Assembly (NCBI GenBank): GCA_044892525.1
Contig: CM097887.1
Coordinates: 4,278,001 to 4,333,332 of the forward strand
DNA length: 55,332 bases
From: Schmidtea polychroa
Lineage: Eukaryota
Direction of reading: 5' to 3'
Of this stretch, positions 7,302-39,434 are shown one piece after another. Both the position numbers and the translations under genes were made by a program. Each line of letters starts with the position of its first letter. Within the stretch, counting starts at the first letter, position 1. The notes under the pieces were generated by a model. The model saw nothing but the letters and a program-made list of their open reading frames with translations, ran no database searches and was not told where the DNA came from.

Positions 7302-7668
7302 GGTACTTCCGTGTTATCTTACCCCCAAAAATTAAATTAAAAAAGAACACATATAATTTTTATATTTATTTTCTAAATCACAGTTACAAACTCAGCAAAT
7401 GTTTGTAAAGAGTTTGTAAATGGTCATCCAGGTGGCCAGAAAACCACAATGTCGTTGAGAATAGTGTTGAACACATCGGCACTGTTGCTTAGAAAACGTT
7501 TGCGCCACATAAACTCACATAATCACATAAATCACAGATAGCCTTAATAAATTCATGTTCAATAATGTTCAATAACGTCATCAATAATGAATTCTCTCAT
7601 TTTTTATATTGTTATTTTAATTGTATTTTATAATTTAATTTTTGGCGGTAAGATAACACGGAAGTACC
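7302..7668. mobile_element. MITE with GGTACTTCCGTGTTATCTTACC terminal inverted repeats
   Basis: TIR pair at 7302 and 7668; half of it is duplicated at 5207-5403. No TSD seen. Confidence 0.7.
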
Positions 7669-12469: not shown

Positions 12470-13675
12470 TCAAACAAAAAGATATCTAACTCTCCCCTTC
12501 TTAAGACTTTTTCTACTTCTTCAGCCACTCGATTCTTCTTTCTTTCTTTTGTTCCTTTTAGTTCAACTTGATGAGGTGATAGAAATCTGACGATTTTATA
12601 TGGGCCATCGTATACCATTCTTGTGCCTGTTCTGCGGCTCTTTACGTACGAGTACCTCCTCCCCCACCTCGAAAACACGAGTGCCCCTCTTTGTCTTATC
12701 CATAGCTCTCATAGTGTCTGCGGCTTTACTCGAGTTAAATCTCGCGTCTTCGATTCTTTCGCTTCTTGATATCTCGGCTTGTTTCAGGTTAGAGTGTAGG
12801 TTAACACTCCGTCCATAAATTATCTCAAATGGTGATAAACCTGAAGCACTTTGTCGACTGCTATTTATAGTGAACTCTATTCCGGGTAGAAGTTTGTGCC
12901 AGTTTCTCTCTTCACATCCACCTGCCAATGTTGCTGTAATAAGATCTCTTATCGTTTGTATGGCTCGTTCGGCTAAACCATTTGATTGGCGCTGGTAAGG
13001 TGAGCTGAATTCCTATTTGATTCCAAGTTTCTGTAGCTTCTGTCTTAGGAAATTCCCTTCGACTTTGCGGTCTCTATCTGTTAAAATGCTCTTCGGTTTT
13101 CCAAATCGATAGATCCAACTATTAAGTATTGTTTGTCCCTTCGTCTTGCTTTGTGATTGCAGTTAAAGAAATCAGTTTGCTAAACCGGTCCACCATTACT
13201 ACAATATATTTTTTATGGCGTTTATTTCCATGTAAGCCACATCCATAACAATCTGTTCTAGGAATTCAGAGCTATATCTAGAAATAAATGTTTCATTGGT
13301 TCTTGTCTGATCGATCTTTCTCTTAGCGCAGATCTCGCAACATTGTAAACCAAGTTGGATTGTTTCTTGCATTTTCGGCCAATAAAATATCTTTTCCATA
13401 TAATGAAATAATTTCTTAACTCCAATGTGACATAGTTCTTCATGTAGGGTTGTTGTTAACAGGCCTGCAAATGTTTCTGGGACTAACATTAAGATATTTT
13501 TGTTCTTTTCTACTGTTATTAATCCTCCATCAATTCGTGTATTTTTTACGTTAAAAGGAAAACAATTCTTTTTCTCCCGTGTACATCCATTTTCTAATAT
13601 CTCTCGCAGTTCTCGAAACCGAATGTCCTTTTGTTGTTATTCACATACTTTTCCATAGCTTCTGTTCATTGGATA

Positions 13676-13717
<42 letters not shown>

Positions 13718-14757
13718 TGATTTTCCTTCCTTAGCTTCTTCATGTCATGTTTCACTCTGGGTGCGAATCATACTTTTTAATCTTGATAGTTCATTTGCAT
13801 TCGATTGCTCTTCGCCTTTCCGAAAATTTAGTTCAAAATCATATTCCGACAGGTTAGCTAACTATGTTTGGAACTGCGGACTGATTGGCGTTTTTGTACT
13901 GTTCATGAAAACCAATGCTTTGTGGTCGGTGGGAATTATGAATTCTTTTCCGTACAGATATTCTCTAAAATGCATGACGTATTCATGTACGGCGAGCAGT
14001 TCATTCCTGGTTACACAGTATCCCTTTTCATGTGATGACATATGTCTCGAGCCATAAGCTATGACAGATTCTTCTCCATCTGTAATTTGACTCAAAACTG
14101 CACCAATGGCTCTGAAACTAGCGTCTGTGTCTAGGATAAAAGTCCTATCTACTCTTGGAAAATCAAGGAGTTTGGAAGCTCTCATCGCATTCTTTAGTCC
14201 AATTTATATCTTTATCGCATCCAGATGTTGCAGCGTATAATGGTGATTTTGGCATAGTCTTTAATGGATCTTCTATAGTAGTTCGTTAATCCGAGAAACG
14301 ATCTCAATTTTTATGAACATTTTGGTACTTCTGCTTTCTCGATCTCTTCCACTTTCTTTCTGTTTGTCTGGATACCCTTCTCGTTAACTGTGTGACCAAG
14401 TAAACACAATTCTGTTTTATTGAATTTGCATTTTTCTGGATTTATCTTCAGTCCTGCCATTTGAATTCTTCTTGACGACCATGGTTATTTCCTTCGGATT
14501 GTACTGGTCCGCGTATAGGATGTTCGTCTCTTCTTGATCTGTGGAAACTAAAAGACTCTTCTGATAGTCTTCTTTGTGGTGATGTAGGCATGGATCTTGG
14601 GTATTCTTTTGAATTCGCATCTGCCTTCTCTCAGTCACACTAGCGTATGTTCTTTGACCGATTGCTTTAAAAATTCCGTTTTATTGTTTCCATCTTTGTT
14701 ACTTTCAAAAGTTTTCGCTAATGATCTCGTTTCTTCAGGTAGTTAGGAGTACCCGGC
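12470..14757 (-). pseudogene. Decayed, internally deleted Ty3/Gypsy gag-pol remnant
   Basis: RNase H FILDTDAS..IGAVLSQ..IAYGSR..ELLAV (13862-14185); integrase Zn finger HEELCHIG..YWPKM..CCEIC (13199-13489); integrase C-terminus INSSRQSASGLSPFEIIYGR and GPYKI. RT core absent; many frameshifts. Confidence 0.88.
13676..13712. repeat. (TA)n microsatellite inside the Gypsy remnant
   Basis: Direct inspection. Confidence 0.95.
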
Positions 14758-14949
14758 AGCACGACCATCCGGAAGAGGGGTACCCCCCCCCCCCCCTATT
14801 GCTGCCATAATTATTTTCTGCTTTTTGATTACGTAATTGCTGCCGGGGGCTCCACATATCTTTTTCAATACATATAGATAGGGCCTATAGAAAAAAGGCC
14901 AAGATTTTTCTGACTATAGTGAAGGGGTCTCCTTGGTCCTGGGATTTTC

Positions 14950-15363
14950 ATGTTTTATAAGATAAGAAAGCAGTTAGGGAATTTAAACTATAGGATAGTG
15001 TCAACTTCTTGGAAAGTACGCAATATGTTTATTAGTAAGTCAAAAACTCCGGTCCAATTGTGTTCCGATCTCGTTTATCAGTTTACATGTAATGGGTGTA
15101 ATGCCACATACATTGGAGAGACTTCCTGTCATCTCTGTATTCGAGCTCGAGAACATTGTAGACCGAAGGCTTTGACCCATATTGGTGAGCACAATAAGGG
15201 CTGTAAGATTAAAATAGGTATGTCTGATTTTAAAATTTTATTAAAAAATTTCGATAATTATTGGGAACGTGTGATTTGTGAGGCGTTGTTGATAAAATCA
15301 TTGAATCCGAAAATTAATGTGCAGAATGCAATGAATACTTGTATCTTAAATGTTTTTAAATAA
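14950..15363 (+). mobile_element. 5'-truncated Penelope-like element, GIY-YIG endonuclease domain
   Basis: LVYQFTCNGCNATYIGET..R..EH..H..E..EALLIKSLNPKIN: GIY-YIG with the CCHH insert typical of Penelope. Confidence 0.9.
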
Positions 15364-18304: not shown

Positions 18305-20777
<2,473 letters not shown>

Positions 20778-21330: not shown

Positions 21331-21953
21331 CCTCACCTATAACCGTTTGTTCTCATTGGTTGACAAGTCGATTTTTATATTTTTAAATGTAAATAATTGA
21401 TGATTACGCATTCCTATCCTAGATTGAGATGCGGAAAATATATCATTTAAGTTATAACAATCGAGAATAACATTAATCCGTTGAAAATAAATTTCTTTTA
21501 AATATTATTTATTTGTTTAAAATTTTAATATTTGAATAAATTTTATTTTTTAAGAAGTCGGTAAGATTTAAATTTTAATTTAATAAAAATATCTCGCTTA
21601 AAATAAATGTTGAAATTGCACAAATTAATCAAAATGAACCAAATTGTAATTAATTAAAATTGTGATGGAAAACCGGACAAATTATTGTAGGAAAGGGAGG
21701 AAATTTACTATGCAGATATTTGCAAAGATTTAACAAAAAAGGTTGGCTTATTAAAACAAATTTGCCGGGAAAAATATTTGGATTTGTTATATAATTATAT
21801 GAAATATTGTTACAGAATTTCTTGTCTGATTTAATTGCTACAACGGACATCTTTTGTTTTTCTTGTAAGCCTAGATCAGAATTTTTCCCAAGCTAAAATT
21901 CCTTCTTAAAATGGAGATTATAATAACAGTAGAGTTTAAAGAAACAAACCATT

Positions 21954-22944
21954 TGTTGGGTTTTATGATATCAAAATCAACCGTTGGTTACTCTGACTCC
22001 ACGTGTTCCAAAATCAATAAACAAAAACTCCCAACGTATATTTGTTTTATAACAATTCACAACTCAACAATTAATCACACTGTTGGTTAATCACAATTCT
22101 TACACAATTTCAAATCGAACTCCGCTCTGGAAGGTCTCGGCCTTGTACGATTTAAAAAATAGGTTTCACCTTTTGTTTGATTCCGCTCTCTGATCCGAAC
22201 TCTTTTAATATTCCTTTCTGACTCCTAAATTCCTCTTATAATTCCTTTTTCCTTTTTATTTTTATTCCTCGAACTCCTATCGTCTGTTTCTTCGTATCCC
22301 TACCTAAGGCTATCGCCGATTATGTGAATTTTGAGTTTTCTTATATACTCCCATAATCGTTGTAATTGCCCCATTTTTGACCTAATTGGTTTTGACTTCT
22401 TCAGCTATCATTCCCTAATTGACTATTTTTGTTGACCCTCTTCGTAATTCCCTGTCTTTTGTTTACCCTCGTTTATCCGATTGTTTGGATAATTGCCCTC
22501 TGAATTCCTCGTTTGTTTACCCTTCCAAATTGCCGTGCTCGGGTTTTCTTCATCGCTCGGGTTCTCCATTGGCTCGGGCTTCCCATTAGCTCGGGTTTCC
22601 CATTAGCCAATTAATTAATTAATTAATATTTTACGTTTTTCCACATTTGTCTGTTTTACGACCCTTTCTACACATTTTCTAACAATTTCTTGCTCACTGT
22701 CTTCTTCACCATCCCTTAATCTACCCCTCTCCCGTTTTCCAGCTTCAATTTCGATAACTTTTCACTTTATTCCACTTCCTCCGGTTTGCGCATTTTCCCA
22801 TTTCATGTCTGATTGTACCCTTTTATAGTTCTGTTTTTATCATATCTTTCTTTGCCATTGCTTCTCTGCTTGACCGCCATTCAATTTCGGCTTTCCTTTT
22901 AATCTGAACTATATAATTTAATAATTTATTTTCAAACCTCAACA
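21954..22944 (-). repeat. 3' LTR
   Basis: Direct repeat of 37665-38655, preceded on the minus strand by the PPT. Confidence 0.98.
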
Positions 22945-22957
22945 TATCTCCCCCTTT
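22945..22957 (-). promoter_or_regulatory. Polypurine tract
   Basis: AAAGGGGGAGATA directly abutting the TG of the 3' LTR. Confidence 0.93.
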
Positions 22958-23316
22958 AAAAAAAATTTCGTCCTCGAAATATGTGATGCTTATTCAATTT
23001 AAAATATATTATTATATTTTCTGAAAATTAGGTGACCTATTGACATACCGACAATTCAGTCCCATTCGAGTCTTGTTCATTTTATTAAAATTCAACATTT
23101 TTTTTTCTTATGTTTAAAAATCTGATTTTAATTTATTCGTGAATTTTCTCATTTAAATAGTTTTTTGAAATTTTCAATCAAGTGTTTCATAGCATTTTAT
23201 TAAAAATCTGATTTTACTTTATTCGTGAATTTTCTCATTTAAATAGTTTTTAAGTGTTTCATAGCATTTCATTTTCAAAGTTAATTATTTACTTTATTTA
23301 TATTTAATTTATTTAC

Positions 23317-23595
23317 GTTCAATAGTAAATTAAATTTCATCCAATTTCACGTAGTAAGTACTCATGACTCAACATACATGTTCCGCATATGCCACTTGAG
23401 AGTCAGAAAATTCCGTCTGTAGCCAACAAGTTATAGGTTTCCCAACTAGTTACCTTGTGAACATAAAAAAAAACAAATTCCTATAAGCGTAGTTGTATAA
23501 ACATGATTAAGTCGATCGATACAGTCATCATCGTAACGGCATACTTTATTGGAAATTAGTGATTTATCAAGAATATACTTTCCTAATTCTTCCAT
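23317..23595 (-). pseudogene. inx: Innexin N-terminal exon carried inside the retroelement, decayed
   Basis: MEELGKYILDKSLISNKVCRYDDDCIDRLNHVYTTTLIGICFF/MFTR*LVGKPITCWLQTEFSDSQVAYAEHVC*VMSTYYV matches the innexin DDDxxDRLN..YT..QxVGxPIxCW..Y..xCWV.xTY signature. One T-run frameshift, three stops, GTAAAT donor at 23316. Confidence 0.9.
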
Positions 23596-24242
23596 AGTTT
23601 AACGAAAGATTCAATATTAATTCCAGTGGATAGTGAGAATCACTCCATCGATTGATTGAAGCACTTTTCTTCAGAATGAAGAAATGCATCACAAGAAATA
23701 ACCAATAGGAATTAAGCCAGCCAATTCATTAGTCTGTTTGTAAGGCACACCCGCATTCATTAAATGAATAGATTAGGAAATTTTCAGTGTTCCTCTTTAT
23801 GGAAGATCGTTGATTCCGCAACTAAAGACAATTAGTTTCAAATTGATTTCATACTATAATTTAGTTGGCGATTTTACACGCTGTGTTTATAAATATAATA
23901 ATGTCAACAAGTTTGATTTATTTCCTTGTAAATAAACAATACAATTTTAAATTTAATATTAAATTGCAGTTTGGAGACGGCAAGATAATTTTATCCCTCA
24001 ATGTTTACCAGATCAATCATGTCTAAATTATATTTGCTCTCAATGTCGATTCTTGATATCAATGTCGATTCCGGGAATAATAATGTTCTGCCTCCCATGT
24101 TGGCAATTATAATCAATTGCCTCTTGAAATGGTAATTATTTGTTTGTTAATTTGTTAATCTTAATTTAGGTATAAATAGGCCTTGTATATAACTTAAATT
24201 CTCAAGATATAAAAATCCGTAATAATTCAGGACATTGAAACG

Positions 24243-24545
24243 GTGCTATATTTCTACAGTCAGATACCTGAGTTCTCCAGTGAAATATTACCGTTTGAGC
24301 AACTACACAATATTTTCAAAATGGCATTTCTATCTGCTGGAGATTTTCAGGAAACTTTAATTGACACATATGTTGGATTGCTAAAGGAACTATTTCAAAT
24401 ACTAAAGGAGAACGATTTAAATCTGCTTATTGGGTTCTTGTGGGATGTGTTAAAAAACTATGAACCAGCAATGGGGGCAGCAGCTTGCTTACTTAACAGT
24501 GTCTACGAATCGGTAAGACCTTTCTCGTATTCAGTCTACTTATAA
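24243..24545 (+). CDS. Antisense ORF or exon of unknown function in the element's 3' region
   Basis: ~95 open codons of helical, protein-like composition after a ttctacag acceptor, inside very AT-rich DNA. Confidence 0.4.
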   Translation: MLYFYSQIPEFSSEILPFEQLHNIFKMAFLSAGDFQETLIDTYVGLLKELFQILKENDLNLLIGFLWDVLKNYEPAMGAAACLLNSVYESVRPFSYSVYL

Positions 24546-27120
24546 TTATAATAATTAATATTAATATTATTTTCATTATTTTTTGTTTATTTATTTTTAC
24601 ATTATTTATGATTTTGATTTTTGATTGATTTTTCGTTTTTATCACTTATATCATTATCTTATTTTATTTATTATTTTTATTTTTTATATTAATTTTATTT
24701 TATTAATTATTATTATTATTATTTTTCTTATATCATAATTCATTCATCTTTATGTTATCTTGTTTATTTATCAATTATTTGCGCTTATATATTAATTAGA
24801 CCAATAAACAGTTTGTCTGTAACTAACAACTCCTGCAAATCATTTATTATCACTAAGTTTATTGTTTAACATAATATGGACAGATTTTATGACAGATTAA
24901 CTTAAAATATAAAATAATTTACATAATTAAAATAAGATTTTAAATATTTGTAGAAAAAGAATGATTTAATGACAATTTTAAAATTTAAATAAGTTTAATG
25001 TTCGCATTAAAACGATTAAATTTGTATATTGATTCTAATTATATATATAATCATTAGTCTTCATATTTATTATTTTTCTTAAAAAATAATTTAAATAAAG
25101 TATTTTACATTTTAAATGTAATAAATATAAGAAAATTCATGTAAGTACTGAAGAAGTTTCTAAAAATGTTTTCAATTAAGGAGTTATTAAACAAATTACG
25201 TTTTTAATAAGTTTTCCAGTAGGAGTATGCCAACTATTAACGTTTCCGACATAAAACAGCCTGAGAAGTGTTGCTAATTATTGTATTATTTAATTATTAC
25301 GAATTTATTTAATTTATAATTTATTTCGTTTCAGTTACATCCAAAAATGGAGGTTTACACAAAAGTTATTCAGCAAGTGTAGAACATTCAGATCAGAGTC
25401 AAAGTATATTAGAGGTTAATTTTATATTTTTAATATATTGTTGATTATTTTCAATTTAGTAAATTGAAATAATAATAATAATCAAATCGTCAGTCGCTTG
25501 CCCTCCACGTTGCTGTGAACCCAATATCGTTTGGACCAAATCGCATTTGATAAGAGTTTTTATGACAATGAATAAGAATTTAATTTATTTTATATAATTA
25601 ATTTATCTTTTCGTTTCATCTATAATACTTTGTATGTAATTTCAGGTTTTTAATTTATTGAATATTTATAAAAGATTTTTTTTTTAAAAAAAATTTATTA
25701 GCATTTCTTCGAAATAAAAGTAAAAAAAAGGTATTTATTGTTTCATTATCTAATTCAGATTATTTTTTTTTAAATGCAATTTAATTTCCTTCGATTTTGC
25801 CGAATAACTTTTTCGCTTTTTGGTGAAAACTTTATTATAACTTAACAGAATTTTGCACATAACATTTTAATAGTTTTGATTGTGTGGAGTTTTGATCTTA
25901 TTCAATGTCCTATTGTGAGTATTTTTTATTATAGATATTTTGTGAATCGTGTTTGTGTGCGATTATTCTTTCTTTCTATTCTCTCAGTAATAATTTCTAT
26001 CCACCTACATTATAAACCGTTATTTAACGACATGGCTCTAATTTAATGTCAATTTTTGTCAATGCCACACACACTTTTATTTAATTTATACTATTAAAGA
26101 TTTAATTTATTGTGATTCAGGTTTTTATCTAATGCGTTACGGTGATATTTTTGTATATATTTTTTTTCACATACAATATTTTTAAAAGAAAATTTTTACA
26201 AAAATAAAAATCTTAGTTGAAATACAAAGTTTGGAAGTTTTGTAAAAAAAATTTTGATAATTTATGTATATGAAAAATCTGTTATATTTTGAAACGATAA
26301 ATTTCATCGCAAGTGTGCTTGATTTTTTTATTATAGGAATTGTGTTAGTATATGTTTCTGAAACAAAAAAAAATATTTTTTTTTTCACACAGTTTAGTTG
26401 GTGGAATGCTTGAAGTATTAATTTATTAGATTTTTAAAGATTATAGGAAATGCAAAATTTTGAAACAGGTATGATGAAAGAAATCCCCGCCCATATCCAA
26501 TCTCAGCTTTTATGATTGTATGTCCGGATATCGACGGTCGATGATGAGTACAGCGACAGATTTTATGTTGGTTTTTTATTTGCCAGTTATTTATAAATAT
26601 AAATTTTCCTCACAGCTTTAGCCTTTTCACTTATGCTGTTTTTTACTTTACTTTTGTTTTATGTCGGAATTAATTAAATTTTTTTTTTTTTTTTTTTTGC
26701 TTAATTTAATTTTATTCTTTAATTTAGGACTCACTAGTAAAATTTGATCCCCTCATGTGGTTAGTTTCGTTTCTATATAATTAAAATTACTGTAGGATTT
26801 ACTTAGGCTTCCTGTACCCGCGCCACCTCGCTCGGGTCTAAAACGTACCTTTGCCTGTGTGGACTTGTCCCACAGGTTCAAGAGGTTCGAAAAAAGACCT
26901 CCTCGGGGTGTAGTGGACGACTCCCACATCGAGAGTTTTGTCCTGCTAGAGGACTAACTTATCAATAAATTTTGTTTATTGACTATTTTGTTCTATTCAT
27001 TTATTCTCTTTTAACATTTAGTTTTATTAATGTAAATGTTATTATCGTTTAGCCTTTCTCTTTTACTACTTCGAGGACGAAAAGTGAGGTTTTAAATTGT
27101 AAATTTTATTAATCATTAAA

Positions 27121-27366
27121 TTATTCTAACTCATCCATCTCTCTTTCCTCATCGGTCGGGCATTCATTTCCCTGTATCTGCATTCTTAGCAACACGACTT
27201 CCGCTTCGTATTGGAACAGGAGAATTTCCATCCTTTCCAGCTTTCTTTTGCAAATCATATCCTCTAGTTCCAAGTCGTCAATTTTCCTCTCCATTGCTTT
27301 CATTTTTCTTCTCATTTCTTTCATTGAGTTTCGACACTCTTTGATTGACTCTTCCTCTTGGGCTTC
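27121..27366 (-). CDS. Spliced accessory exon, charged coiled-coil peptide (81 aa)
   Basis: Acceptor tatttaacttcag at 27367 followed in frame by EAQEEESIKECRNSMKEMRRKMKAMERKIDDLE...; first exon not identified. Confidence 0.55.
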   Translation of the reverse strand, partial: EAQEEESIKECRNSMKEMRRKMKAMERKIDDLELEDMICKRKLERMEILLFQYEAEVVLLRMQIQGNECPTDEEREMDELE

Positions 27367-27536
27367 CTGAAGTTAAATATAATTAAAGTTTTCTTAAACA
27401 CTCTTTATCACGCAAGGCCAAGCACACCATAGCGAAGTCCGATCAACCAAAATAACTAATTTATGTTATTATTAATCTATAATCATACTAGTTTTATAAG
27501 ATTTATTTACACGCATGCAATTTTTATAATGTAATT

Positions 27537-28670
27537 TTATACAGTGGTTTCGATCACACTGAAAGGCTCGAGTCGTAAATCAGTTATAATATGCTGTCTA
27601 TTTTTGCACAGAATGATTGTTATTATTATGAACACCAGAGATAATATGAGAAATGCTGTCAGGATGAGGTATATCAAATATTCACATATAATTAGAGCTT
27701 GATCAGTCTCAATTTGAGTCCGCTTATTTATTACACGATTGTTAACTTGGTATTGTTTTGTAGTAATTGGACCTGCTGTGGTTACATCAGATTTCAGGCC
27801 TGGTACCCTTCTCGTTTCCACCAGAACGGTTTTCCATCGATATGGCTCGAATATCCGTTGTTGATATTTGATTTTTATCAGGTAATCATATTCTAAATTA
27901 GAACTAATTAATGAAAAATAGCTTTTACCGGCATCCAACAAAACGATAATTTTTTTTTCATTACTGATAATCACTCTTTCGTCATCTGGGGATTTCGATA
28001 AATTGTTATTGACCCGTTTTGAACTCCAAGAATCACACGATTCGATACATTCTTAAGGGGAATTATTTGATTCTCTGTTTGAAACAATGTCCATTTATTT
28101 TTCATTATTGTGCCATTATCATACATCGCATTTTCGTAGTAATTAACCGTTATTGTATAATTTGAGTTCATTTTGAGATTGTAATACCGAGTGTAAGCCT
28201 TTCGCATGTTTAGAATATCCACAAAATTTTGAAATATGACCTGCACCTTTACTCTTTCTACGGCTACCCAATACACATCTATACCATTCATTATCGGCTC
28301 AATTTCCACGGTATTCCATAATTCGTTAGTTTGTATTATAATTCGAATTTGACTATTAAACTTTTCAAGCGAATCTGATTCATTCTGCTTTATGATCCAT
28401 GGATACTTGAAGTTAACTTTTAATTCTCGTGCCGCATACGTATTTCTGTCATAATTCAAAATAATGAAAGGTGTGAACGGGTCTAACACGTTGCTAATTT
28501 CTATTTGCTCCATTATTTCGCACTGATAAGTCCAAACAATATTTGTAAACGTGGAATAAATATCGATCTTGTCCCATAAGGGTATTTTTGTTATCGCATA
28601 TGGTAAATCCATTCTCATCCCTTTTACCCTTGTCATCATCATTAGCACGACTGTTGTGAATAGCACTCTG
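27537..28670 (-). CDS. Second type I membrane (env-position) protein fused to the integrase C-terminus
   Basis: Hydrophobic signal VLFTTVVLMMM, ectodomain with sequons NES, NYT, NGT, NVS and NGS, one -1 shift near 27990, ~30-aa TM LIICEYLIYLILTAFLILSLVFIIITIILC and a 22-aa tail. Confidence 0.7.
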
Positions 28671-28789
28671 TTAAGATAACTGATTGGAACTGGATTTTTG
28701 GTGAATTTTTGTTGAATTTTTGTATCCGCCTTCTCTTCATTTCGTTTCGATCGTAATGGATATCTTTCTTCGTCATTTTCCGGGACCAA

Positions 28790-30190
28790 TTTACAACGAT
28801 TGGCATGAACTATTATAGGATTTGCCTTTTTACTCCTAAACGGTAATAACTTCAAATTTGTTTCGGTTGTATCACACACTTTATATGGCCCTTTAAATGG
28901 TCTCTGTAACTTTGGAGACATACCTTTGAGTGGTTCTGGTCTGTTAAGATACACTAAATCTCCAATTTTTATTCCATGAGGTCGTGTTTTCTTATCGTAG
29001 GCTTCTTTGTACTTCTCTTGATTATGTTTTATTGTTAATCCGGCTTTTGTCCAAACCGACTGTACCCTCTCTTGCATTATCGCATTATACTCGGGTACTT
29101 CCATATATTGAGTAACGGGTGATTGGAAGTTTAGATCTATCGGCATGTTGTTTCGTCTTAAGTACATTAAATAAAACGGTGTCTCTCCCGTACTTGGGTT
29201 GACAGCATTTCTATATGCAAACAAACAAGGCTTTATGTAGTCGTCCCAATCTCTCTGTTTGCTATTTACATACGACGAAATCATATTTATCAATGTGCCA
29301 TTAAATCTCTCGACTAAACCATCGGTTTGTGGATGGTAGGGCGAAGTATTCAACTTCCAGATTCCGAATAACTCGGTGATTGATTTAAATAATTCGCTTT
29401 GGAAATTTTTACCTTGATCAGTTAATAACTTTTTTGGGGTACCATATCGGAAAATAATGTTCTCTACAAATATTTTTGCTACTGTATCAGCCTTTTGATT
29501 TGGTATGGCGTAAGCTTCCGGCCATCTTGTCAAATAATCACAAAATACTACGATGCATTTATTTCCTTTTATTGTTTCAGGTAACGGCCCAACAATGTCC
29601 ATTGCAGTCATCTCCATTGGTGCGGTTGGAACAGACATTGGTTTTAAAGGTACTTTAATTTTATTGCCTGTATTTCTTCGAGTTATACATATCTTACAAT
29701 TTTTGCACCAATCTTTTACGTCTTTTTCCATCATTGGCCAATAGTACTTCATTTTCAGTCTTGATAAGGTTTTTCTAGCGGACAAGTGTCCTCCTAGGGC
29801 TCCATCATGATATTGCATCAACAGTGAATCTCTCTGTTTTTCAGGGATCATAATCAATATCTCGTCGTTTTTCACGCATTTTAATATTCCCTCGTGAATT
29901 ATGTATTTATGATTTTCACTCATTACCTGTTTTAAATCTTTCTCCTTTCTGACCGTGATTGCTTGTTCAAAGAAATGTTTAAGTCGGTTATCCTTTTTCT
30001 GTTCGTTTTGTAATTCAGTCACATTATTAACGGCTTTGATTGCTGCAAATATTGTGCCTTCCACTTTTTCTGTACCAGTATCCTCTCCACTAAGCCCATT
30101 GGGAATTCTTGACATTGCATCGGCATTTGCATTCGCTTTTCCTGCTCTATATTTTATTTCGAAATCATACTCTTGGGAGCAATTGACCAT
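28790..30190 (-). CDS. End of RNase H plus integrase (HHCC, DDE core, GPY/F)
   Basis: QEYDFEIKYRAGKANANADAMSR, HDGALGGH..YYWP..CKNC..C, MDIVGPLP, TDQGKNF, YHPQTDGLVERFN, FKGPYKV. Confidence 0.97.
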
Positions 30191-32160
30191 CTGATTAATT
30201 TACTAGTTGAATCTCTATGCTTCATTAACCACTGAAGGGGGTTGTGATCAGTATATACAACGAATTTTCGTCCCAGCAAATATTGTCTAAACGTAGCAAT
30301 GCCGTAAACTAGCGCTAATGTCTCTTTTTCGATTGTCGAATAATTTTTTTCATGTGACCTTAAAGATCTGCTTGCATACGCTATTACGTGATCCTTTTCA
30401 CCGTCCACTTGCTGACCTAACACCGCTCCCAATGCCACGTTACTGGCATCGGTCATTAATAGGAAAGATTTCGTAAAATCTGGGCATCGCAAAATAGGTG
30501 CCATTACTAATTTCTGCTTTAACGTGTCAAAAGCTGATTGTTGGGTTTTGCTCCATGTAAACTTATTATTTTTCTTTAACAGCGAATTTAATGGCTGAGC
30601 GATATGCGAGAAATTCTTTATAAACTTTCTATAATAGCTTGCTAATCCCAGAAATTGCCTCACCTCGCCCGCGTTCTTTGGAATTGGATACGCTTCCACC
30701 TTTTTAATATTGTCCGGATTAGTTTGCAGACCTCTTCTTGATATAATATGACCAACATATATTACTTCAGATTTTCCCCATTCACATTTTGATGGTTTTA
30801 TTTTCAATTTTGCGCTTTTAAGTCGCTTAAATACTGTTTCCACATCATCGAGATGCTCGTCAAAGCTATTCGAAAAAATAATTATATCATCAATATAAAC
30901 TAGCGCATGTCTGATGCCTCTCAACACAAAATTCATACCTCTTTGGAATGTAGCTGGGGCTCCCGTTAAGCCAAACGGCAAGACATTGAACTCATATAAG
31001 CCTTTACCATCGGAAAATGCCGTTTTCCTTCTATCTTCTTTTTTTACTTTAAATTGATTATAGCCTTTGTTCAAATCGATGACCGTAAAATACTGGGCTT
31101 CTCCCATCTGATCAAACATTTCTTGAGGTACGGGAATTGGATAAGTATCCTTTCTTGTTACTTGATTCAGTTTTCTATAATCAACACAAAACCTTAAATC
31201 TCCGTCCTTTTTCTTGAATATTACAATAGACGAAGAAAATGGTGAGGAGCTGTCTCTGATTATCCCAAACTCTTTCATCGCCCTGATTTGTCGATCACTC
31301 TCGGTTTGATGGATGTAAGGGATTCTGTACGGTTTTATTTTAACCGGAGTTTCATCCAGCAACGGGATTTCGTGCTCTATTATATTTGTTAGCCCCAAGT
31401 CGTATTCATGTTTCGCAAAAATATCTCGATATCTCCTCAACAATTTTGTAAATTCCTGTTTTTGTTTTTCGGTCAGGTCCTTGTTCACAACTTCGGGTTC
31501 CTTATAAATTTTTACGTTTCTGGGAATTTTCTTTTCTGTTTCTACCGACATGTGAGACAGTTTTCCCAATCTTGTCTGTGGCTTTAATCGTATTGATTTA
31601 TCACCATAATTCGCTATTCGCACTGGTAGCAATTGGTTTTCCACTTTCACGATTTCATCGCACATTGGGGTCTCGTATTTTTCAATTAACGTTTGACTGG
31701 GTTCGAATATGAATTCATCATTATCGACACTAGTCGCGCTAGCATAATATACCACTTCTGTTTGAGGTGGGATAGTTAATGATTGGTTTAGAAACACTTC
31801 TCCTGAATTACGAATGACTTCACCTATTTTCCCCACTATCAGGTTTCCAGTTTTGAAATCAAGTGAGATTCCGTCTAATTGTTCTAATACATCCATTCCA
31901 ATCAAGCACAATACAGGACTTTTCTCCATAATTTGCACATTATGTCTAATTCTTCTATCACCGATTATCAGTTCAACTTCGATTTCTCCGATTACTGGCA
32001 ACACATTTCTGGATAACGATCTGATTACACTATCGGATGGTTGGATTCGTTTTTTCTCTTCCATCGACAGTATTTCTTCTGATATAATTGTATGACTCGA
32101 TCCAGAATCCACCACGGCTTCAACTCTGTTTTTGTTTATTTGAATTACTATTCGTGGTTG
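30154..32160 (-). CDS. pol: Aspartic protease, reverse transcriptase and RNase H
   Basis: VVDSGSS; PVKIKPYR, RFCVDYRKLN, IDLNKGYNQ, PFGLTGAPATFQ, YIDD; TDASNVALGAVL, EKETLA, TDHNPL. A 1-nt deletion at ~30178 (WSIA/LQEYDF). Confidence 0.98.
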   Translation of the reverse strand, partial: QPRIVIQINKNRVEAVVDSGSSHTIISEEILSMEEKKRIQPSDSVIRSLSRNVLPVIGEIEVELIIGDRRIRHNVQIMEKSPVLCLIGMDVLEQLDGISLDFKTGNLIVGKIGEVIRNSGEVFLNQSLTIPPQTEVVYYASATSVDNDEFIFEPSQTLIEKYETPMCDEIVKVENQLLPVRIANYGDKSIRLKPQTRLGKLSHMSVETEKKIPRNVKIYKEPEVVNKDLTEKQKQEFTKLLRRYRDIFAKHEYDLGLTNIIEHEIPLLDETPVKIKPYRIPYIHQTESDRQIRAMKEFGIIRDSSSPFSSSIVIFKKKDGDLRFCVDYRKLNQVTRKDTYPIPVPQEMFDQMGEAQYFTVIDLNKGYNQFKVKKEDRRKTAFSDGKGLYEFNVLPFGLTGAPATFQRGMNFVLRGIRHALVYIDDIIIFSNSFDEHLDDVETVFKRLKSAKLKIKPSKCEWGKSEVIYVGHIISRRGLQTNPDNIKKVEAYPIPKNAGEVRQFLGLASYYRKFIKNFSHIAQPLNSLLKKNNKFTWSKTQQSAFDTLKQKLVMAPILRCPDFTKSFLLMTDASNVALGAVLGQQVDGEKDHVIAYASRSLRSHEKNYSTIEKETLALVYGIATFRQYLLGRKFVVYTDHNPLQWLMKHRDSTSKLIRWSIAPKSMISK

Positions 32161-32584
32161 TTTACCAATTTTCGCTAACGCCATTAGTACGTAATTACCA
32201 GGTAAGCCTAACCTATTTCTTCTTTCAATTTCTGCGCTCGTTGGATCGATTCTCTCACACTGTAGTGCAATGTTCTCAACTGGCTTCATTTCTATCAATT
32301 TATCTACCGGATATGCTGGTAGTGGTTGTATAAATGATTTTGGTATGCATAATCTAGTGAATGTATCCTGGTTGCCATCATTAGAAAATGATTCTTTTAT
32401 TAGTTGATAATTTTTCCATGTATCGGCTTGATTCCGTTCCTCCTCGTATGACGGTGCCGATTCCCCGATTTTCTCGTTGTCACTTTTGTCCTCATTAGAA
32501 GTAGTGGTTACATCAATATAACTTACCTTTCTCTTTTTCGTTAATCGTGCTTTCAACGTTTCCAACTCTCGATATTGATGATGT

Positions 32585-34439
32585 GTTATAAAAAATCTGG
32601 CTAACAATGGTATACATCCAATAACCAACTTCCACGACAGACCTGTAATAGTGTATAATCTGTGTGTTGATAACACCTGCGAAACTATTACTTTAATCAT
32701 GATTCCGATCACATATATTCCGATTAATCCCGCGCAGGCTTGCCCGATAAACATAAATTTTCCCCAAATCTTTTTCATCGTATTATACGTCGCCTTTTTG
32801 TAATGATCCACTGTTAATAAATAGTCGTAATTCACTTTTCCAGTTCCACTCGGGAGAATAGTGTCTACTATTTCCGTTATTACCCTTTCCTTTTTCGAGG
32901 GGAATAATAAGTTTCTGCGTGCTGCTTCAATATCATCACTTGAATACATTCCACTTTGAGTCATGCTGTCTAGCGATGTAAAGTTAATTAGATATTCTAA
33001 TTTTGTCAACTCCAATTTTTCTGGGACTTTCACCCACCTATGATCAGGTAGTGCAATCCATGATTCGGGCGTCAGGCGGTATAGTGGAGCCAATAATCTG
33101 TTGCACTGCAACACTCTCGGTTTCGCGTCCTCCTCCAATAAAATTCGTGTCACCGGCTCCATGAATCGTAGCTTCCCATTAACATTCACAGGCAGTTCAT
33201 TTGTGCATTGATTGTATTTCATCAATTTAATAGGTACTGCCTTGCATTTATAACTATATAAGGCTTCACCAAGCATTCGAGCGAATACTCCATTCTCCGA
33301 AATCAACATTGGAGCAACTAGATTCGGGTTCGTGATAGCCATCGCCATTCTGTTTCGCAGGATTTCTTTGTTTAACTTGCAATCATTTAGTATGATTTCC
33401 CTGTACACACTTTCAATTGTATCTTGGCTAAAATGAAATAAATAGTCAATCTTATTATTGAAATAGTTCGTTAGTTTAATTTCCTCTGCGTACAATTTTG
33501 TTTGAGCTTCTTCGACAACTTTCTTGGATAAATAAATTCCTTTATAATTGGTCTCATAAACAGTTTGTCCACACTTCGTATTTACGCTCTTCCTTAAGAA
33601 TCTCATCCCATCGTTTGGGGACATTGCCATTAAAACCGTTGGCGTTTTCTTCAAGCGTATCGGTGTGATTCTAAGTGTCATATTCATGACTGAGTTTAGC
33701 ACTGTGCTTTCTGGTCTCTCTTGGATCTGCTCTCCCGTTATCTCTTTAAAAGGCATTGATTTTAAATGTGCTAAATTGCATTTTTTGGTATCAACTTCAT
33801 ATACCAGAATTGACTCACCTGTGTTGCAGCTTTCTCCCTCATGTTACAAAATGGATGGGTTTGCAATTTTCCCGTATCGTCATCGAATGATCCATCAAAA
33901 TACCTTAATTCGGTTTCATATTCTTCTATCACGACGGTTTTATCAATGACTGTTTGTCCTACTTTATACGCTTCACCCTCGCAATCGCCATTTGCCTTGA
34001 TTATCCCCTTAACTGCTATAGTTTCACGAATTTTATAGTTTAATTTAGCCTTCAAATTAATTTCTGAATTTATTTTCAGCTCTCCTGTTTGGAACGCTGC
34101 CAAACAGTTTTCCCGTGTCACCTCTATTACTCTTGGAATTGAGTGCATTTTGATTAATGACGAATGGCTCCATTTGCCACAGTAGAATATAAACGTAGTT
34201 CTTTTTGCTGTGCATTCTCTCACTTTCACTCGTCTAAATCCCGCTTCTTGGTATACGTGGTATGTCACTTCATTTGCCCATTTTAAGTTCCTCGGATATG
34301 CGTCTGGACACTCTGCTACATCTACTAGCGAATATACTTTTCCCATTTCTGTCTGGGAGCAATCGTACGCTACCAAGGACGTTGTGGTATTAATAACTCC
34401 TAAAATCACCAAAATAGACATGGTTAGCCATGGAAACAT
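32585..34439 (-). CDS. Chuvirus-like (class III, gB-related) fusion glycoprotein embedded in the polyprotein
   Basis: Signal-like segment, then AYDC..SLVDVAEC, FYCGKWSH, CLAAFQTG, CGQTVYET, YFNNKIDY..CKL, GEALY..KC, CTNELPV..FMEPVTRIL, SGMYS..LLFP, and TM region WGKFMFIG..GLIGIY. Split by a -1 shift between ~33830 and 33775. Confidence 0.88.
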
Positions 34440-34489
34440 TATTTTCCCTCTTTTCGGCTCATAATTTCTTCCAGTTGTCGCAGTCTCCG

Positions 34490-34865
34490 ACTTTTGCACC
34501 AAGTTTTCCCATCCTCCATTACGCATAATCCAACCCGTCACATATGTATTCGCCACTTCGGTGGCTTTTACTATCTATTTTTCCGATTTATCGCATTCCA
34601 AGCATCCATATACGCCAATTTCTAGAACAATATAAGCAAGGACTGTTAGTACCACGTCTCTGTTCAAACCGTTCCTGATTAATCTCTTGACTACTGTTTC
34701 ATCGCAAAATACCCTCTCTATGGTATTATCCTTTAGTACTACTGGAAGCCGACTTTTTAATACCGCTGCAAGCTGATGTATGAGTTCATCGTCACAACTA
34801 TTTCCTTCTTCCAGTGCATATAATTCTGTTACTAACCCTTTCAAAATTGATTCTGTTTGAGACAT
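34490..34865 (-). CDS. Bcl-2-like domain spanning an in-frame TAG
   Basis: BH1-like ETVVKRLIRNGLNRDVVLTVLAY and BH2 WIMRNGGWENLV are in the same frame, separated by TAG 34575-34577; a hydrophobic anchor follows ~18 aa after BH2. Confidence 0.68.
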
Positions 34866-36347
34866 ATTATTCAGATCCGTTTTTTCAACCACATTGGAAT
34901 CTATTCGATCGTTCTCTTCGTTTCCACCCATTAATTCGATTTTACACCGCTTTCGACCATTCAATTTACTTTCCGCTTCTACAAAATTCGACTCACTTTT
35001 CACTCTTTCACTCACTAGTAGCTCGTCGGTTATATGGTTAGTTTCCTGATTTACTGAATCATTTTCGTCCACCTCCTCACTCGTAATTTCGTCTTGCTCG
35101 TCATTTATGCCTTCATCTTTTGGGTCATGCTCTTCTAACTCGTAGTCGTTAGGTTCTTCAGCCAATTCCTTTTTAATTTCCATGTCATCATCCTTCGTAT
35201 CCTTTGTAATTCTCGGCCAGTGGGTTATTATACTCTCGGATACCTCCCTCACCTGTTTCTTGGCTTCGATATTATTTATATAATTCGGACTGCACCCACA
35301 ATTGATTAAGTATTCATCGTCATCTAACTCAACTCCCTTGAAAGTTAGTATAACAATTCCATCATTACCCAACATTTCCACCGCTTTCCGTCGTACTTTC
35401 GACACCTTCATGCTCCAGTGTTCTTGTAAGTACTCCACTTTCCCATTCATATTTAAGGCTATTACCAATGATCTGGGTATCTCATCTGACTCTCGGTGCT
35501 CACGGCCCATTTTTCGTACTATTTCTTTCAATTTCGCCTGATAGTTCGTCGTTTTATGAATATACGGTAAAATACTCTCGAATAATTGTTCCTTCGCTTT
35601 TTGATCCATCTCCGAACTTATCATTCGTTCCGGACAATTACTAATTTCGTCTTCATCTCCAATATACAGACTATCCCGTAAATCCTGTAATTTTTCCTCC
35701 CATCCTTTAAAGTCTGAATTTGAATGATTAATTACATTGAATATCTTTACCTCATTTTTATATCCAGGAATCAGCCCACAATCGACCAAATATTCTCCAT
35801 CCGCCAATTGACCCATCGACCGTTTTTTGAAATTTATTTGCACTTCATTTGCTTTATATTTCGACATAATGAGCTCCCTCAAATCCTTTATTTGCCCGCT
35901 AGGTTTAATCGTAAATTGAAAGTTTCTGCCATTTCCGTCTGTAGTTTCTACGAATATGTCGGTCAAGCTCTCTGTGGATCTCAGTGCTTTTCCCAATGTC
36001 TTTATTAGTTTTGCAATTTCATCGTCTTGGTATTTATTGTAAACTTTGACACACATGTTTAAAATAATTTTCAATTTTCTTTGGCTAAGTTGGATTTGAG
36101 TTAGTTCGGTAATCCACTCTTTCAATCTCGGAAGGTCTGTTTTCATTCCGGTATACCATCTTTCTATTTTCTTTATCAACAGAACAGCCTTTTCATTTGA
36201 TAGATCATTTTTTGCTTTATCACTAAGATTTCCGCCCGCATCGGCCTCTTTTTCGTACACCATACACGAATCTGCTTCCTCATCTGATTCGAACTTTGAC
36301 ATAAGCTTGTTTAATTTCTGTCTCATTTCCCGAAATTCATTTTCCAT
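34575..36347 (-). CDS. Accessory polyprotein segment: helical N-terminus, two ubiquitin-like domains, acidic linker, start of Bcl-2-like domain
   Basis: In frame with gag. UBL1 IFVETTDG..IKPSGQIKDLR..QLADGEYLVDCGL; UBL2 ..LTFKGVELDDDEYLINCG. Confidence 0.75.
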   Translation of the reverse strand: MENEFREMRQKLNKLMSKFESDEEADSCMVYEKEADAGGNLSDKAKNDLSNEKAVLLIKKIERWYTGMKTDLPRLKEWITELTQIQLSQRKLKIILNMCVKVYNKYQDDEIAKLIKTLGKALRSTESLTDIFVETTDGNGRNFQFTIKPSGQIKDLRELIMSKYKANEVQINFKKRSMGQLADGEYLVDCGLIPGYKNEVKIFNVINHSNSDFKGWEEKLQDLRDSLYIGDEDEISNCPERMISSEMDQKAKEQLFESILPYIHKTTNYQAKLKEIVRKMGREHRESDEIPRSLVIALNMNGKVEYLQEHWSMKVSKVRRKAVEMLGNDGIVILTFKGVELDDDEYLINCGCSPNYINNIEAKKQVREVSESIITHWPRITKDTKDDDMEIKKELAEEPNDYELEEHDPKDEGINDEQDEITSEEVDENDSVNQETNHITDELLVSERVKSESNFVEAESKLNGRKRCKIELMGGNEENDRIDSNVVEKTDLNNMSQTESILKGLVTELYALEEGNSCDDELIHQLAAVLKSRLPVVLKDNTIERVFCDETVVKRLIRNGLNRDVVLTVLAYIVLEIGVYGCLECDKSEK

Positions 36348-36362
36348 TTTCTCTTTAAACTC

Positions 36363-37478
36363 CTACTTTTGAGCATATGCAACATTAGTATTTGCTGATT
36401 CATCTTGAAATCTAATAGATTTCCTCAATATTGGTCGGCTAAATCTTTCTGAGTTTCGGGGGCATGATCGAGCCATGTGGCCATAACCTTTGCATGAATG
36501 ACATTGAATTTGTCCATTAGTGTTCACTTTATCTCGTTGGGGCGACGGGGATCTTGATGGTGATGGGGTACCTGAAAAACAATTCCTGCTTATGTGGCCC
36601 ATTTTCCCACATCTATAGCATTTCAAGTCATTAATAATTGGCTTACTTTCTACAAACTTTCTTCTGGGGCTGGGGTCTCTTCCATATTTAAACCAGCATT
36701 GATTTGAATAGTGTCCCACTTTCTTGCAGTGATCGCATACTATGCTGTTAGATCTCGCAGCCACCTGACTCCCAAACGCTGCTTTATTAATTTCGACTTT
36801 ATTACTTGGTCTTGGCGAACTGATTGTTTGGGTTGGTTTCTTTGATACCCATTGTTCTCGAACTGGAGTTACCGACCTTTCTCTTTTATCGGCATTTGCA
36901 GCAAATACTTCGGATTTTCTGGTACTTTTCAAGTTCAATTCAATTTTCATGGCTTTTTTCACAAGTTCATCAAAATTCGAGAAATCCACGTAGCATAGGG
37001 CTTTTTTAATTTCAGGAAGGGCTCCATTTATAAATTGATCTTGAAGCAGTTCTCTGACTTGTTTTACCATCTCAACTTGTTCAGGCTTTGCTTCGAAGGC
37101 TTTGTCTGCTAAAGTCGTTAAATGGTATGCAAATTCACTTACCGATTCATTTGGATTTTGTACTCTGGCATAAAATTTTTGGCGCATTATTCTTTTTATA
37201 TCGCCTCCCACCAATTTCATTGCCATCGCATCCTTGAGTTTGGCCCAATCATTTCCAATTGTCTTTTTATCCACTTGCTGCCAAGCTTCTCTTGCGGCTC
37301 CTTTTAAATAGAGTGGGAATCTTTGTACCATTATGGCCTGTGACCACCCATAGGCCGAAGCGTACATATAATAATCGCCCATGAAATCGGCAAAATCAAC
37401 CGGGTCTCCTCCATACTGATTCACCGGTAATTTTTGACAACTGGCAAAATCTATCATCTCAGCGTTCTCTCTGGCCAT
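36363..37478 (-). CDS. gag: Gag with three CCHC zinc knuckles
   Basis: Retrotransposon-gag features (LKGAAREAW, R.QNPNESVSEF, QFINGA) and CDHCKKVGHYSNQC, CYRCGKMGHISRNC, CHSCKGYGHMARSC. First ATG at 37478; frame open from 37514. Confidence 0.95.
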   Translation of the reverse strand: MARENAEMIDFASCQKLPVNQYGGDPVDFADFMGDYYMYASAYGWSQAIMVQRFPLYLKGAAREAWQQVDKKTIGNDWAKLKDAMAMKLVGGDIKRIMRQKFYARVQNPNESVSEFAYHLTTLADKAFEAKPEQVEMVKQVRELLQDQFINGALPEIKKALCYVDFSNFDELVKKAMKIELNLKSTRKSEVFAANADKRERSVTPVREQWVSKKPTQTISSPRPSNKVEINKAAFGSQVAARSNSIVCDHCKKVGHYSNQCWFKYGRDPSPRRKFVESKPIINDLKCYRCGKMGHISRNCFSGTPSPSRSPSPQRDKVNTNGQIQCHSCKGYGHMARSCPRNSERFSRPILRKSIRFQDESANTNVAYAQK

Positions 37479-37639
37479 CTTTACTTTTCGGTTCCTCAAA
37501 TTGTATTCACTCACGGCTAAATATTAAAATTAATAATCAATAATTACTACCTCTTCCAATTTCCAATTATTTTCAATTTTCTTATTACTTTAATTTTTTT
37601 CACCTCTTTCACCCTTCAATATTCGCCCACCAACGTTTA

Positions 37640-37657
37640 ATCACATCGGGCTCACCA
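37640..37657 (-). promoter_or_regulatory. Primer binding site, tRNA-Trp-like
   Basis: TGGTGAGCCCGATGTGAT(T) versus the vertebrate tRNA-Trp PBS TGGTGACCCCGACGTGAT(T), recalled from memory; 7 nt from the 5' LTR. Confidence 0.75.
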
Positions 37658-37664
37658 AAATATA

Positions 37665-38655
37665 TGTTGGGTTTTATGATATCAAAATCAACCGTTGGTT
37701 ACTCTGACTCCACGTGTTCCAAAATCAATAAACAAAAACTCCCAACGTATATTTGTTTTATAACAATTCACAACTCAACAATTAATCACACTGTTGGTTA
37801 ATCACAATTCTTACACAATTTCAAATCGAACTCCGCTCTGGAAGGTCTCGGCCTTGTACGATTTAAAAAATAGGTTTCACCTTTTGTTTGATTCCGCTCT
37901 CTGATCCGAACTCTTTTAATATTCCTTTCTGACTCCTAAATTCCTCTTATAATTCCTTTTTCCTTTTTATTTTTATTCCTCGAACTCCTATCGTCTGTTT
38001 CTTCGTATCCATACCTAAGGCTATCGCCGATTATGTGAATTTTGAGTTTTCTTATATACTCCCATAATCGTTGTAATTGCCCCATTTTTGACCTAATTGG
38101 TTTTGACTTCTTCAGCTATCATTCCCTAATTGACTATTTTTGTTGACCCTCTTCGTAATTCCCTGTCTTTTGTTTACCCTCGTTTATCCGATTGTTTGGA
38201 TAATTGCCCTCTGAATTCCTCGTTTGTTTACCCTTCCAAATTGCCGTGCTCGGGTTTTCTTCATCGCTCGGGTTCTCCATTGGCTCGGGCTTCCCATTAG
38301 CTCGGGTTTCCCATTAGCCAATTAATTAATTAATTAATATTTTACGTTTTTCCACATTTGTCTGTTTTACGACCCTTTCTACACATTTTCTAACAATTTC
38401 TTGCTCACTGTCTTCTTCACCATCCCTTAATCTACCCCTCTCCGGTTTTCCAGCTTCAATTTCGATAACTTTTCACTTTATTCCACTTCCTCCGGTTTGC
38501 GCATTTTCCCATTTCATGTCTGATTGTACCCTTTTATAGTTCTGTTTTTATCATATCTTTCTTTGCCATTGCTTCTCTGCTTGACCGCCATTCAATTTCG
38601 GCTTTCCTTTTAATCTGAACTATATAATTTAATAATTTATTTTCAAACCTCAACA
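37665..38655 (-). repeat. 5' LTR
   Basis: Direct repeat of 21954-22944, followed by the PBS and gag. Confidence 0.98.
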
Positions 38656-39434
38656 CATTTATTAAGTAATATAAATTAATGTAATCATGAAAATCTGTAA
38701 ATAAATTTGTTGAGAATTACACATTATCCATTTTTTAGTGCCGGCTTTAGACAAATTTGAAATAATGCAGCTCTAGGCGGGTAATCAGCTTGGGTAATCT
38801 GTTACCACGGGAGTGATCGCAGTGTCGGCCTCAGACAATTTTGTGCTATATAAAAAGTGATATTGGTAGCACGAGGAACAACAAATAATTTTCATAACAT
38901 AAAAAATATTTTTAAATTTAAATTTTTCATAATTTTGCCGCCCTTTAAAATAATGCCACCCAGGCAGCCGCCTATGTCGCCTATGTTTCCATTTCCTCTC
39001 GCTGTGGAGTTTTATGTGAAGATTACATTCTGAAATTAAACTTATAAAGTATATTACGTAGAATTTATTATTACTGATTTAGCTAAAAATTTTATAATTA
39101 TTTATTTATTTATTTAATTAGTGCTTCATGATGACAACTGATTTGTCGCAATATAAATACAAAAATATATTTTCACAAATAATGTTTCTGCCGATTTTGG
39201 CGTGTTTTTTGTATCGCGTCTGTGTGCGCGGTATGATTAGACCGATTCTTGTTAATGTGCGCACACAGACGCGAGAAGTACGTTTTTATGTTTTATATTG
39301 AAGTTAATTGTAATTGTTGGTTTTTAGGATTGATTTGAATTCTAGGAATTGATTGGTTTTTCTGGAAGTAAAGTGAATTTTTGTTTGAACGGGTTATTTA
39401 TGTGAATATTTTGAATTTTCGGATTTAGTTAAAT

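Follow-up and report, generated by a model that had tools for sequence, protein, structure and literature searches.

The capture of host DNA by LTR retroelements is already known. In the LTR-mediated retrocopies reported by Tan et al. (2016, PMC5131818), part of a host gene lies between both LTRs with microhomology at the junction, several parental genes can contribute to one element, copying is repeated, and carriers can be devoid of pol. The available part of that report offers a template-switch model with microsimilarity and multi-gene chimeras, and describes the host piece as derived from mRNA and as replacing part of the internal ORFs. Pack-TIRs and Pack-MULEs, which are DNA transposons with terminal inverted repeats, likewise carry mosaics of host genomic fragments that transposition multiplies (PMC8277862). 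TART-nxf2 and the piwi/aub captures in Drosophila telomeric retroelements, which are non-LTR elements, are short non-coding host fragments with ~90–96% identity and many copies; in the accessible part of the account their cargo is strongly biased toward piRNA genes, and piRNA evidence is given (PMC13534243). Host innexin sequences are found in mobile or viral genomes as ichnovirus vinnexins (PMC8402728) and as an endogenous nimavirus innexin (PMC7016691, PMC3124438). These are genes of large DNA viruses; the nimavirus innexin is full length with 428 aa (PMC7016691), and vinnexins are expressed as proteins that are active in assays (PMC8402728). Burro/GYPSM1 (PMC6431247) combines gag, an accessory region with a Bcl-2-like stretch, a mononegavirus-type env, and the order PR-RT-RH-IN. 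It is longer than 30 kb and includes MATH, BIR, ankyrin and dUTPase domains, and the available part of its description mentions neither a 3′ region filled with host scraps nor a pol-less partner of 9–10 kb.

The locus described here is in a stretch of 55,332 nucleotides of the Schmidtea polychroa genome (assembly GCA_044892525.1, contig CM097887.1, positions 4,278,001 to 4,333,332; G000:C3:4278001-4333332), hereafter the window. It contains an LTR element that houses the 5′ end of a host innexin gene near its polypurine tract (PPT), in a region between the ORF end and the PPT that is called the bay below. In contrast to the LTR-mediated retrocopies, the host pieces occupy a non-coding 3′ bay while gag, env and pol may remain, the innexin piece is present in ~40 copies, three of the four gene scraps are antisense, at least one retains introns, and a satellite unit is included. 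Unlike the telomeric captures, the carrier is an LTR element with miscellaneous cargo, and it differs from Pack-TIRs and Pack-MULEs in being a retroelement. Against the viral innexins stands a fragment of 93 codons in an LTR retroelement, broken in 33 of 34 copies. An exchangeable 3′ bay, bracketed by predicted hairpins and filled mostly with scraps that are not of mRNA type, is thus a variant of a known process. Searches of the open-access literature turned up neither an innexin fragment carried by an LTR element nor a bay of this kind. The reading to which a probability of roughly 0.7 is given is that the innexin piece was captured once at a microhomology, likely by a copy switch of reverse transcriptase (RT), that it was then copied to ~40 sites, and that it is likely a functionless passenger in the exchangeable 3′ bay of a Burro-like element.

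A Burro-like Carrier Element

The element is 16,702 bp in length and is on the minus strand (Table 1). Its LTRs have TG..CA termini and show 2 mismatches over 991 bp. The primer-binding site is presumably tRNA-Trp-like. The ORFs of the window copy are broken at ~5 places, and the coding sequence from the C-terminal part of env to the tail is split into pieces by frame changes. The env gene sits between gag and pol; the mononegavirus-fusion-type profile PF24664 was matched upstream of the protease with E-values of 1e-62 and 1e-29. A weakly Bcl-2-like stretch near 34490-34880 precedes env: 60 of the 60 PDB matches listed for it are Bcl-2 or Bcl-xL, with the best E-value only 0.13. No Pfam or Atlas match was obtained for this stretch, and its fold model (pLDDT 43) was too poor for a structure search. 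No Pfam match to MATH, BIR, ankyrin or dUTPase was found in the element, which also differs from Burro/GYPSM1 by its smaller size and 1-kb LTRs. Judged by sequence, the element is a smaller, env-bearing gypsy relative of Burro from a small family, and not Burro itself.

An ORF of 83 aa, charged and coiled-coil-like, is located at 27121-27372 on the minus strand, between the polyprotein tail and the bay, and has only a weak DUF724 match.

Table 1. Features of the LTR element and its 3′ bay, in window coordinates and in the order of element transcription.
Feature	Position	Strand	Basis
5′ LTR (991 bp; TSD CATT at 38656-38659)	37665-38655	-	sequence comparison
Primer-binding site	37639-37657	-	sequence
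gag (Retrotrans_gag, CCHC knuckles)	36363-37523	-	Pfam
Accessory region between gag and env, and N-terminal part of env; in-frame stops at the borders	33771-36362	-	sequence, Pfam
C-terminal part of env (Monjiviricetes fusion), protease, RT, RNase H, integrase, C-terminal tail	27537-33843	-	Pfam
Predicted hairpin with UCCU loop, at the bay start	27066-27086	-	prediction
Further bay modules, common to subsets of copies	25490-26575	-	copy comparison
Forkhead exon remnant, antisense to element; donor G000:C2:162.475 Mb, 93%	25330-25489	+	donor match
Karyopherin-like host gene piece: intron end, one exon, most of the next intron; antisense to element	24201-25330	+	donor match
Bay filler, common to sister copies	23969-24200	-	copy comparison
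Host DNA from upstream of the innexin ATG (5′ UTR and/or promoter); corresponds to donor L062:418-1010 but lacks 192 bp of it	23596-23968	-	donor alignment
Captured innexin codons 1-93 (N-terminus, TM1, first Cys pair), sense to element	23335-23595	-	donor alignment, Pfam
11-nt microhomology between donor codons 90-93 and native element; 3′ capture junction	23335-23345	-	comparison with three innexin-free relatives
Native 3′ region, including GT at 23316 and a short internal duplication at 23114-23251	22983-23345	-	found in innexin-free relatives L088, L097, L098
Predicted hairpin with AGGA loop, just upstream of the PPT	22965-22980	-	prediction
PPT	22945-22957	-	sequence; 72 exact PPT-LTR junctions genome-wide
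3′ LTR (991 bp; TSD CATT at 21950-21953)	21954-22944	-	sequence comparison

The Innexin Piece and Its Donor Gene

The sequence-only reading of this DNA had recognized an innexin N-terminus, with the first transmembrane helix (TM1) and the first Cys pair, in sense orientation inside the LTRs and target site duplications (TSDs), and this is borne out. The N-terminus begins with an ATG at 23595 and is spread over two frames. Its 3′ half, translated with X at stops, matched Pfam Innexin (PF00876) with an E-value of 2.5e-8 and 33.9 bits against a cut-off of 25; the 5′ half alone gave no Pfam match. TM1 and both first-loop cysteines were recognized through alignment to the donor.

The search for a donor locus, which had been proposed, was successful. 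The donor is an intact host innexin gene of three exons at G000:C1:176.98 Mb (C1:176975954), with 91–92% DNA identity to the piece. It was found, like the sister copies, by DNA search of the genome (781 Mb, mostly within four large contigs), in which 40 of 55 candidates were scored, 39 element loci among them. Exon 1 has 139 codons (L062:1011-1427) and scores 101 bits against Pfam Innexin, exon 2 is at L062:8054, and exon 3 is in L140. No close orthologue of the donor was obtained, one nematode match at 40% being found among 97 candidates. The genome includes 122 Innexin-profile matches, many of them long and open and several in local clusters; given such a large family, random capture of some innexin is not unlikely.

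Both ends of the capture differ from what had been claimed. The piece had been described as ending at a splice donor followed by intron-like DNA, ~360 bp from the PPT. Homology to the donor ends instead at 23335, in the middle of the exon (donor codon 93); donor exon 1 extends 140 nt further to its GT, and a contig of a probable RNA run shows it spliced to exon 2 there. Both the GT at 23316 and the sequence downstream of it are present in the innexin-free relatives and are therefore native. The location in the 3′ region of the element holds, with the capture end ~378 bp from the PPT. At the other end, the captured DNA is larger than had been supposed: codons 1-93 stand, and host DNA upstream of the ATG is included as well. 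There, ~370 bp of the window align with ~590 bp of the donor, so that the whole capture, from 23968 to 23335, corresponds to donor positions L062:418-616 and 809-1287. The missing 192 bp were considered as a spliced intron and ruled out, as the gap lacks GT-AG ends; a 4-nt repeat flanks it. No intron falls within the innexin piece.

The 3′ junction coincides with the 11-nt microhomology listed in Table 1; randomly paired points share that many nucleotides or more with a probability of 4e-5. The 5′ junction showed no such overlap, and its pre-capture state was not found in the genome.

One Capture and Its Old Decay

The exact pattern of the innexin 3′ junction occurs at 38 genomic sites on four chromosomes (reversed control 0), so the piece is not absent from sister copies. 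The sister copies are independent insertions, each with its own TSDs, and the junctions are also seen in contigs of public runs. With such evidence against it, a misassembly or a one-off insertion confined to the window copy can be practically dismissed. In 34 copies among the 39 element loci examined, the piece spans the ATG to codon 93, and all 34 end at the same base and continue with the same sequence. Host DNA has been transduced and propagated by the family, as had been suggested: a donor, one junction and the 38 exact sites all point to it. The copies, at ~40 sites by now, go back to one old event in which the 5′ part of a host innexin gene was captured.

When aligned with the donor, the window copy is seen to lack 15 nt at codons 4-8, to shift frame within a T-run at codons 46-49, and to contain stops at codons 54 and 81. 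A frameshift and three stops had been reported; the frameshift and two of the stops are in the innexin frame, while the third stop is beyond the homology. The lesions are nested among the 34 full copies. The T-run has lost 1–4 nt in all 34, with a frameshift in 33. Of these 34, 33 have the codon-81 stop, 16 lack the 15 nt at codons 4-8, and 15 have the codon-54 stop. The remaining copy, L064, has no stop and a net T-run loss of 3 nt, and retains an open frame of 92 codons. In a donor-rooted tree, L064 branches first, the remaining copies forming a clade with support 97, and the first captured form may have been open-framed.

Because the lesions are shared with sister copies, the decay is older than the insertion in the window, as the sequence-only reading had held. 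Divergence between copies and donor (1.2–3.7% in the coding part and 3.8–8.8% upstream), set against the 98.8–99.9% identity of LTR pairs in 15 of the 16 measurable copies, indicates that both capture and decay are older than the present insertions in general.

The dN/dS ratio among copies had been proposed as a check. Distinct coding substitutions comprise 25 non-synonymous and 15 synonymous changes and 3 stops, which yields dN/dS of 0.65 (P 0.12) when the transition bias of the flank is applied and 0.52 (P 0.03) without it; the former value is not clearly different from neutral. The captured coding part is read here as evolving neutrally or nearly so. As it diverges less from the donor than the upstream part does, weak constraint may have acted on it, although constraint on the donor side explains part of this difference.

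The piece is not fixed in the family. Among the 72 exact PPT-LTR junctions, 29 have the innexin junction within 700 bp of the PPT and 43 do not; such a share, about 40%, can come from drift, but a benefit could produce it as well. At L159, the first 25 nt of the innexin piece remain and are followed by other DNA. None of 20 further family loci picked from outside the innexin list has more than 25 nt of innexin.

The carriers are of two types. Among the 38 sister loci, 10 have env, RT and integrase (IN), 1 has IN only, 23 are of a pol-less type, and 4 are ambiguous. The pol-less subfamily has the same LTRs and is 9–10 kb in length (e.g., L075+L076, L081+L082, L087+L088, and L091+L092). Its ORF, composed of gag, an accessory region, an env stub and a post-integrase tail, is open over 1312–1333 aa in 7 copies (L009, L011, L017, L023, L025, L081/82, and L087/88), and is shorter or broken elsewhere. 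Protein identity between the two types is only ~62%, so the pol-less subfamily resembles a long-standing non-autonomous partner with a gag and an accessory protein of its own. The same innexin sub-lineage is found in pol-bearing and pol-less types, and the pol-bearing copy L019 has a bay of the other type; both observations suggest recombination between the two types. The piece would then pass between them through recombination of co-packaged RNAs.

The Route of Capture

The sense orientation and the lack of introns favor an RT switch onto innexin RNA. During minus-strand synthesis, RT would leave the 3′ region of the element at the microhomology, copy innexin RNA toward its 5′ end, and then rejoin the element RNA. 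This series of steps is given about even odds.

Capture at the DNA level, which would lead to the same dead passenger, is judged somewhat less probable than that but close to it. A break in an element copy could have been repaired from the innexin locus by gap filling or microhomology-mediated joining, and the chimera retrotransposed afterward. Gap filling is known for animal Pack-TIRs in the available part of PMC8277862. The other scraps of the bay are antisense, intron-bearing or satellite, which a template switch onto mRNA does not explain, and the join of the karyopherin-like and forkhead pieces has a 9-nt filler that resembles sequence nearby. The innexin piece itself speaks rather for the RNA route: it is sense and intronless, and its end in a microhomology of 11 nt resembles an RT switch.

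The DNA upstream of the ATG has been weighed on both sides. The runs X1, X2, X7 and X8 are guessed to be RNA runs and were available as assembled contigs only, which show no transcription start, strand or level. In X1, the spliced exon contig of the donor, the deepest (depth 72), starts at L062:943, whereas ~590 bp upstream of the ATG were taken; this would fit capture from DNA, within the limit that contigs cannot show starts. Against it, a donor-allele contig of the same run covers L062:557-896 at a depth of 6.6; an intron contig has 13.5. The contigs do not cover the donor upstream of L062:418, a gap that carries no weight either way.

Two family copies located 250–290 kb from the donor contain no innexin, which also argues against the DNA-level route. 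A family LTR near the donor was considered as the driver of a read-through capture and rejected, since the partial LTR in donor intron 1 (86%) is antisense and the capture is sense, and since these two nearby copies lack innexin.

An Exchangeable 3′ Bay

Under the preferred reading of a passenger captured once, the bay would tolerate cargo because of its location between the ORF end and the PPT. It is 2.7–4.1 kb long, and its contents vary by lineage. In the window, two more gene pieces were recognized in it (Table 1). The karyopherin-like piece, whose identity is indicated by transportin/exportin clusters with a score of 0.96, is derived from a multi-exon gene at G000:C2:166.545-166.566 Mb; its exon at ~24225-24512 is 98% identical. 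As introns are kept, this piece does not show the intron loss expected of a copy of spliced mRNA. For the forkhead scrap, sister copies retain 368 bp more, including half of the Forkhead domain. The source of the fillers at 23969-24200 and 25490-26575 was not found in the genome.

Other lineages carry other scraps. An antisense exon with a HECT domain (Pfam E-value 2.8e-11) is at L152:1219-1521 on the minus strand, and also in L146, L149, L151, and L153-L156. The HECT motif was found in 8 of the 20 further family loci, and the bay of that lineage is otherwise unrelated to that of the window; a donor for the HECT exon was not located. In a sister-lineage bay, L088:5812-6358 consists of 547 bp of a 642-bp tandem satellite unit, with 98–99% identity to arrays in L137 and L138.

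Two minor matches were seen as well. A 44-bp piece at L088:6548-6591 is 93% identical to many small contigs (e.g., L139), mitochondrion-like by composition, and L076:6400-6900 matches many copies and one non-element locus (L095, 79%).

Three of the four gene scraps are antisense, and the only sense scrap, the innexin, stops before its splice donor. From these two facts we infer a filter against sense splice sites in element RNA, a lead only, given four cases. The bay would then retain scraps that add no sense-strand splice donor, with pieces that carry splice sites being kept in antisense.

With donors 93–99% identical, a copy tree and readable junctions, the family provides a recent and traceable record of how an animal LTR element gains, swaps and loses host DNA. 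Its antisense, intron-bearing and satellite pieces fall outside the standard mRNA template-switch model.

Two predicted hairpins bracket the bay. Their loops are complementary, and the predicted duplex has -25 kcal/mol. The upstream hairpin motif lies within 7 kb of 33 of the 39 PPT sites examined, at 2.7–4.1 kb, and 93 exact sites are present genome-wide. No covariation was detected among copies: the hairpins are near-invariant, L005 lacks the one on the PPT side, and L025, L028, L030 and L065 have unpaired changes. In a model of a dedicated cargo bay, the hairpins would pair and loop the bay out, host sequence of any kind would be sampled and swapped fast, and the scraps would turn piRNAs on host genes or make silencing costly. 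Such a model is regarded as rather unlikely.

Function of the Captured Sequence

The sequence-only reading had considered that the piece was once functional cargo, comparable to vinnexins. The capture took 93 codons, Innexin profile positions 1 to ~62 of 333, and one of four TM helices; an open innexin frame with four TM helices and two Cys pairs is found in none of the copies, 33 of the 34 full copies having a frameshift with a stop. Functional cargo is also disfavored by the absence of the piece from 43 of the 72 exact PPT sites, by its overwriting in one sister lineage, and by the unrelated antisense and satellite scraps that share the bay. By its look, the piece is a dead scrap and no vinnexin of a retroelement, and its value is that of a marker.

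A protein role, past or still present in one copy, would have a truncated innexin (N-terminus and TM1) disturb the gap junctions of the host, on the model of vinnexins. The piece was captured with its own ATG and upstream DNA, L064 is open, a 163-nt contig with L064-like letters is present in X7, a guessed RNA run, and synonymous changes are slightly in excess. The T-run, on the other hand, varies by 1–4 nt among copies, so the in-frame state of L064 may have come from slippage or assembly error, and the viral counterparts are a full-length protein in nimavirus and active proteins in the case of vinnexins. With most of the profile missing and nearly all copies broken, such a role seems highly improbable.

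Small RNAs against host innexins, also raised in the sequence-only reading, offer another function, which is considered improbable, though less so than a protein. The copies could give rise to antisense piRNAs that repress the host innexin, or could protect the element by raising the cost of silencing it, as TART does with nxf2. Sequence would permit such targeting: of the 314 32-mers of the donor, the window copy contains exact matches to 66, and to 196 when as many as 2 mismatches are allowed; the corresponding numbers for an L017-type copy are 103 and 260. Element-type junction contigs are present in the probable RNA runs X1 and X7, and TART-nxf2 is a precedent (PMC13534243). In the part of that source at hand, however, 8 of 9 captures are of piRNA-pathway genes, whereas the cargo here (innexin, forkhead, karyopherin-like, HECT, and satellite) shows no bias to silencing pathways. 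The piece is also polymorphic and overwritten within the family. A planarian study, in its available part, found genic piRNAs bound by SMEDWI-2 to be few, mostly sense and not correlated with mRNA change, and considered it unlikely that SMEDWI-2 uses piRNAs to target coding genes directly (PMC8532177). Whether ~40 near-identical copies of a host mRNA segment yield piRNAs that affect the donor gene is a testable question. Probes, RNAi triggers and read mapping aimed at the 5′ end of the innexin, or at the forkhead, karyopherin-like and HECT exons, will pick up element copies as well.

Other Elements in the Window

The LTR end of a diverged relative occupies 5207-7500 and forms a near-perfect fold-back with arms of ~930 bp (98.7%). 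Near 6412, its hairpin on the PPT side has the AGGA loop as well, but on a different and longer stem. Long ORFs outside the element, at 27-2749, 12596-15363, 18733-20290 and 53923-55276, probably represent further transposons.
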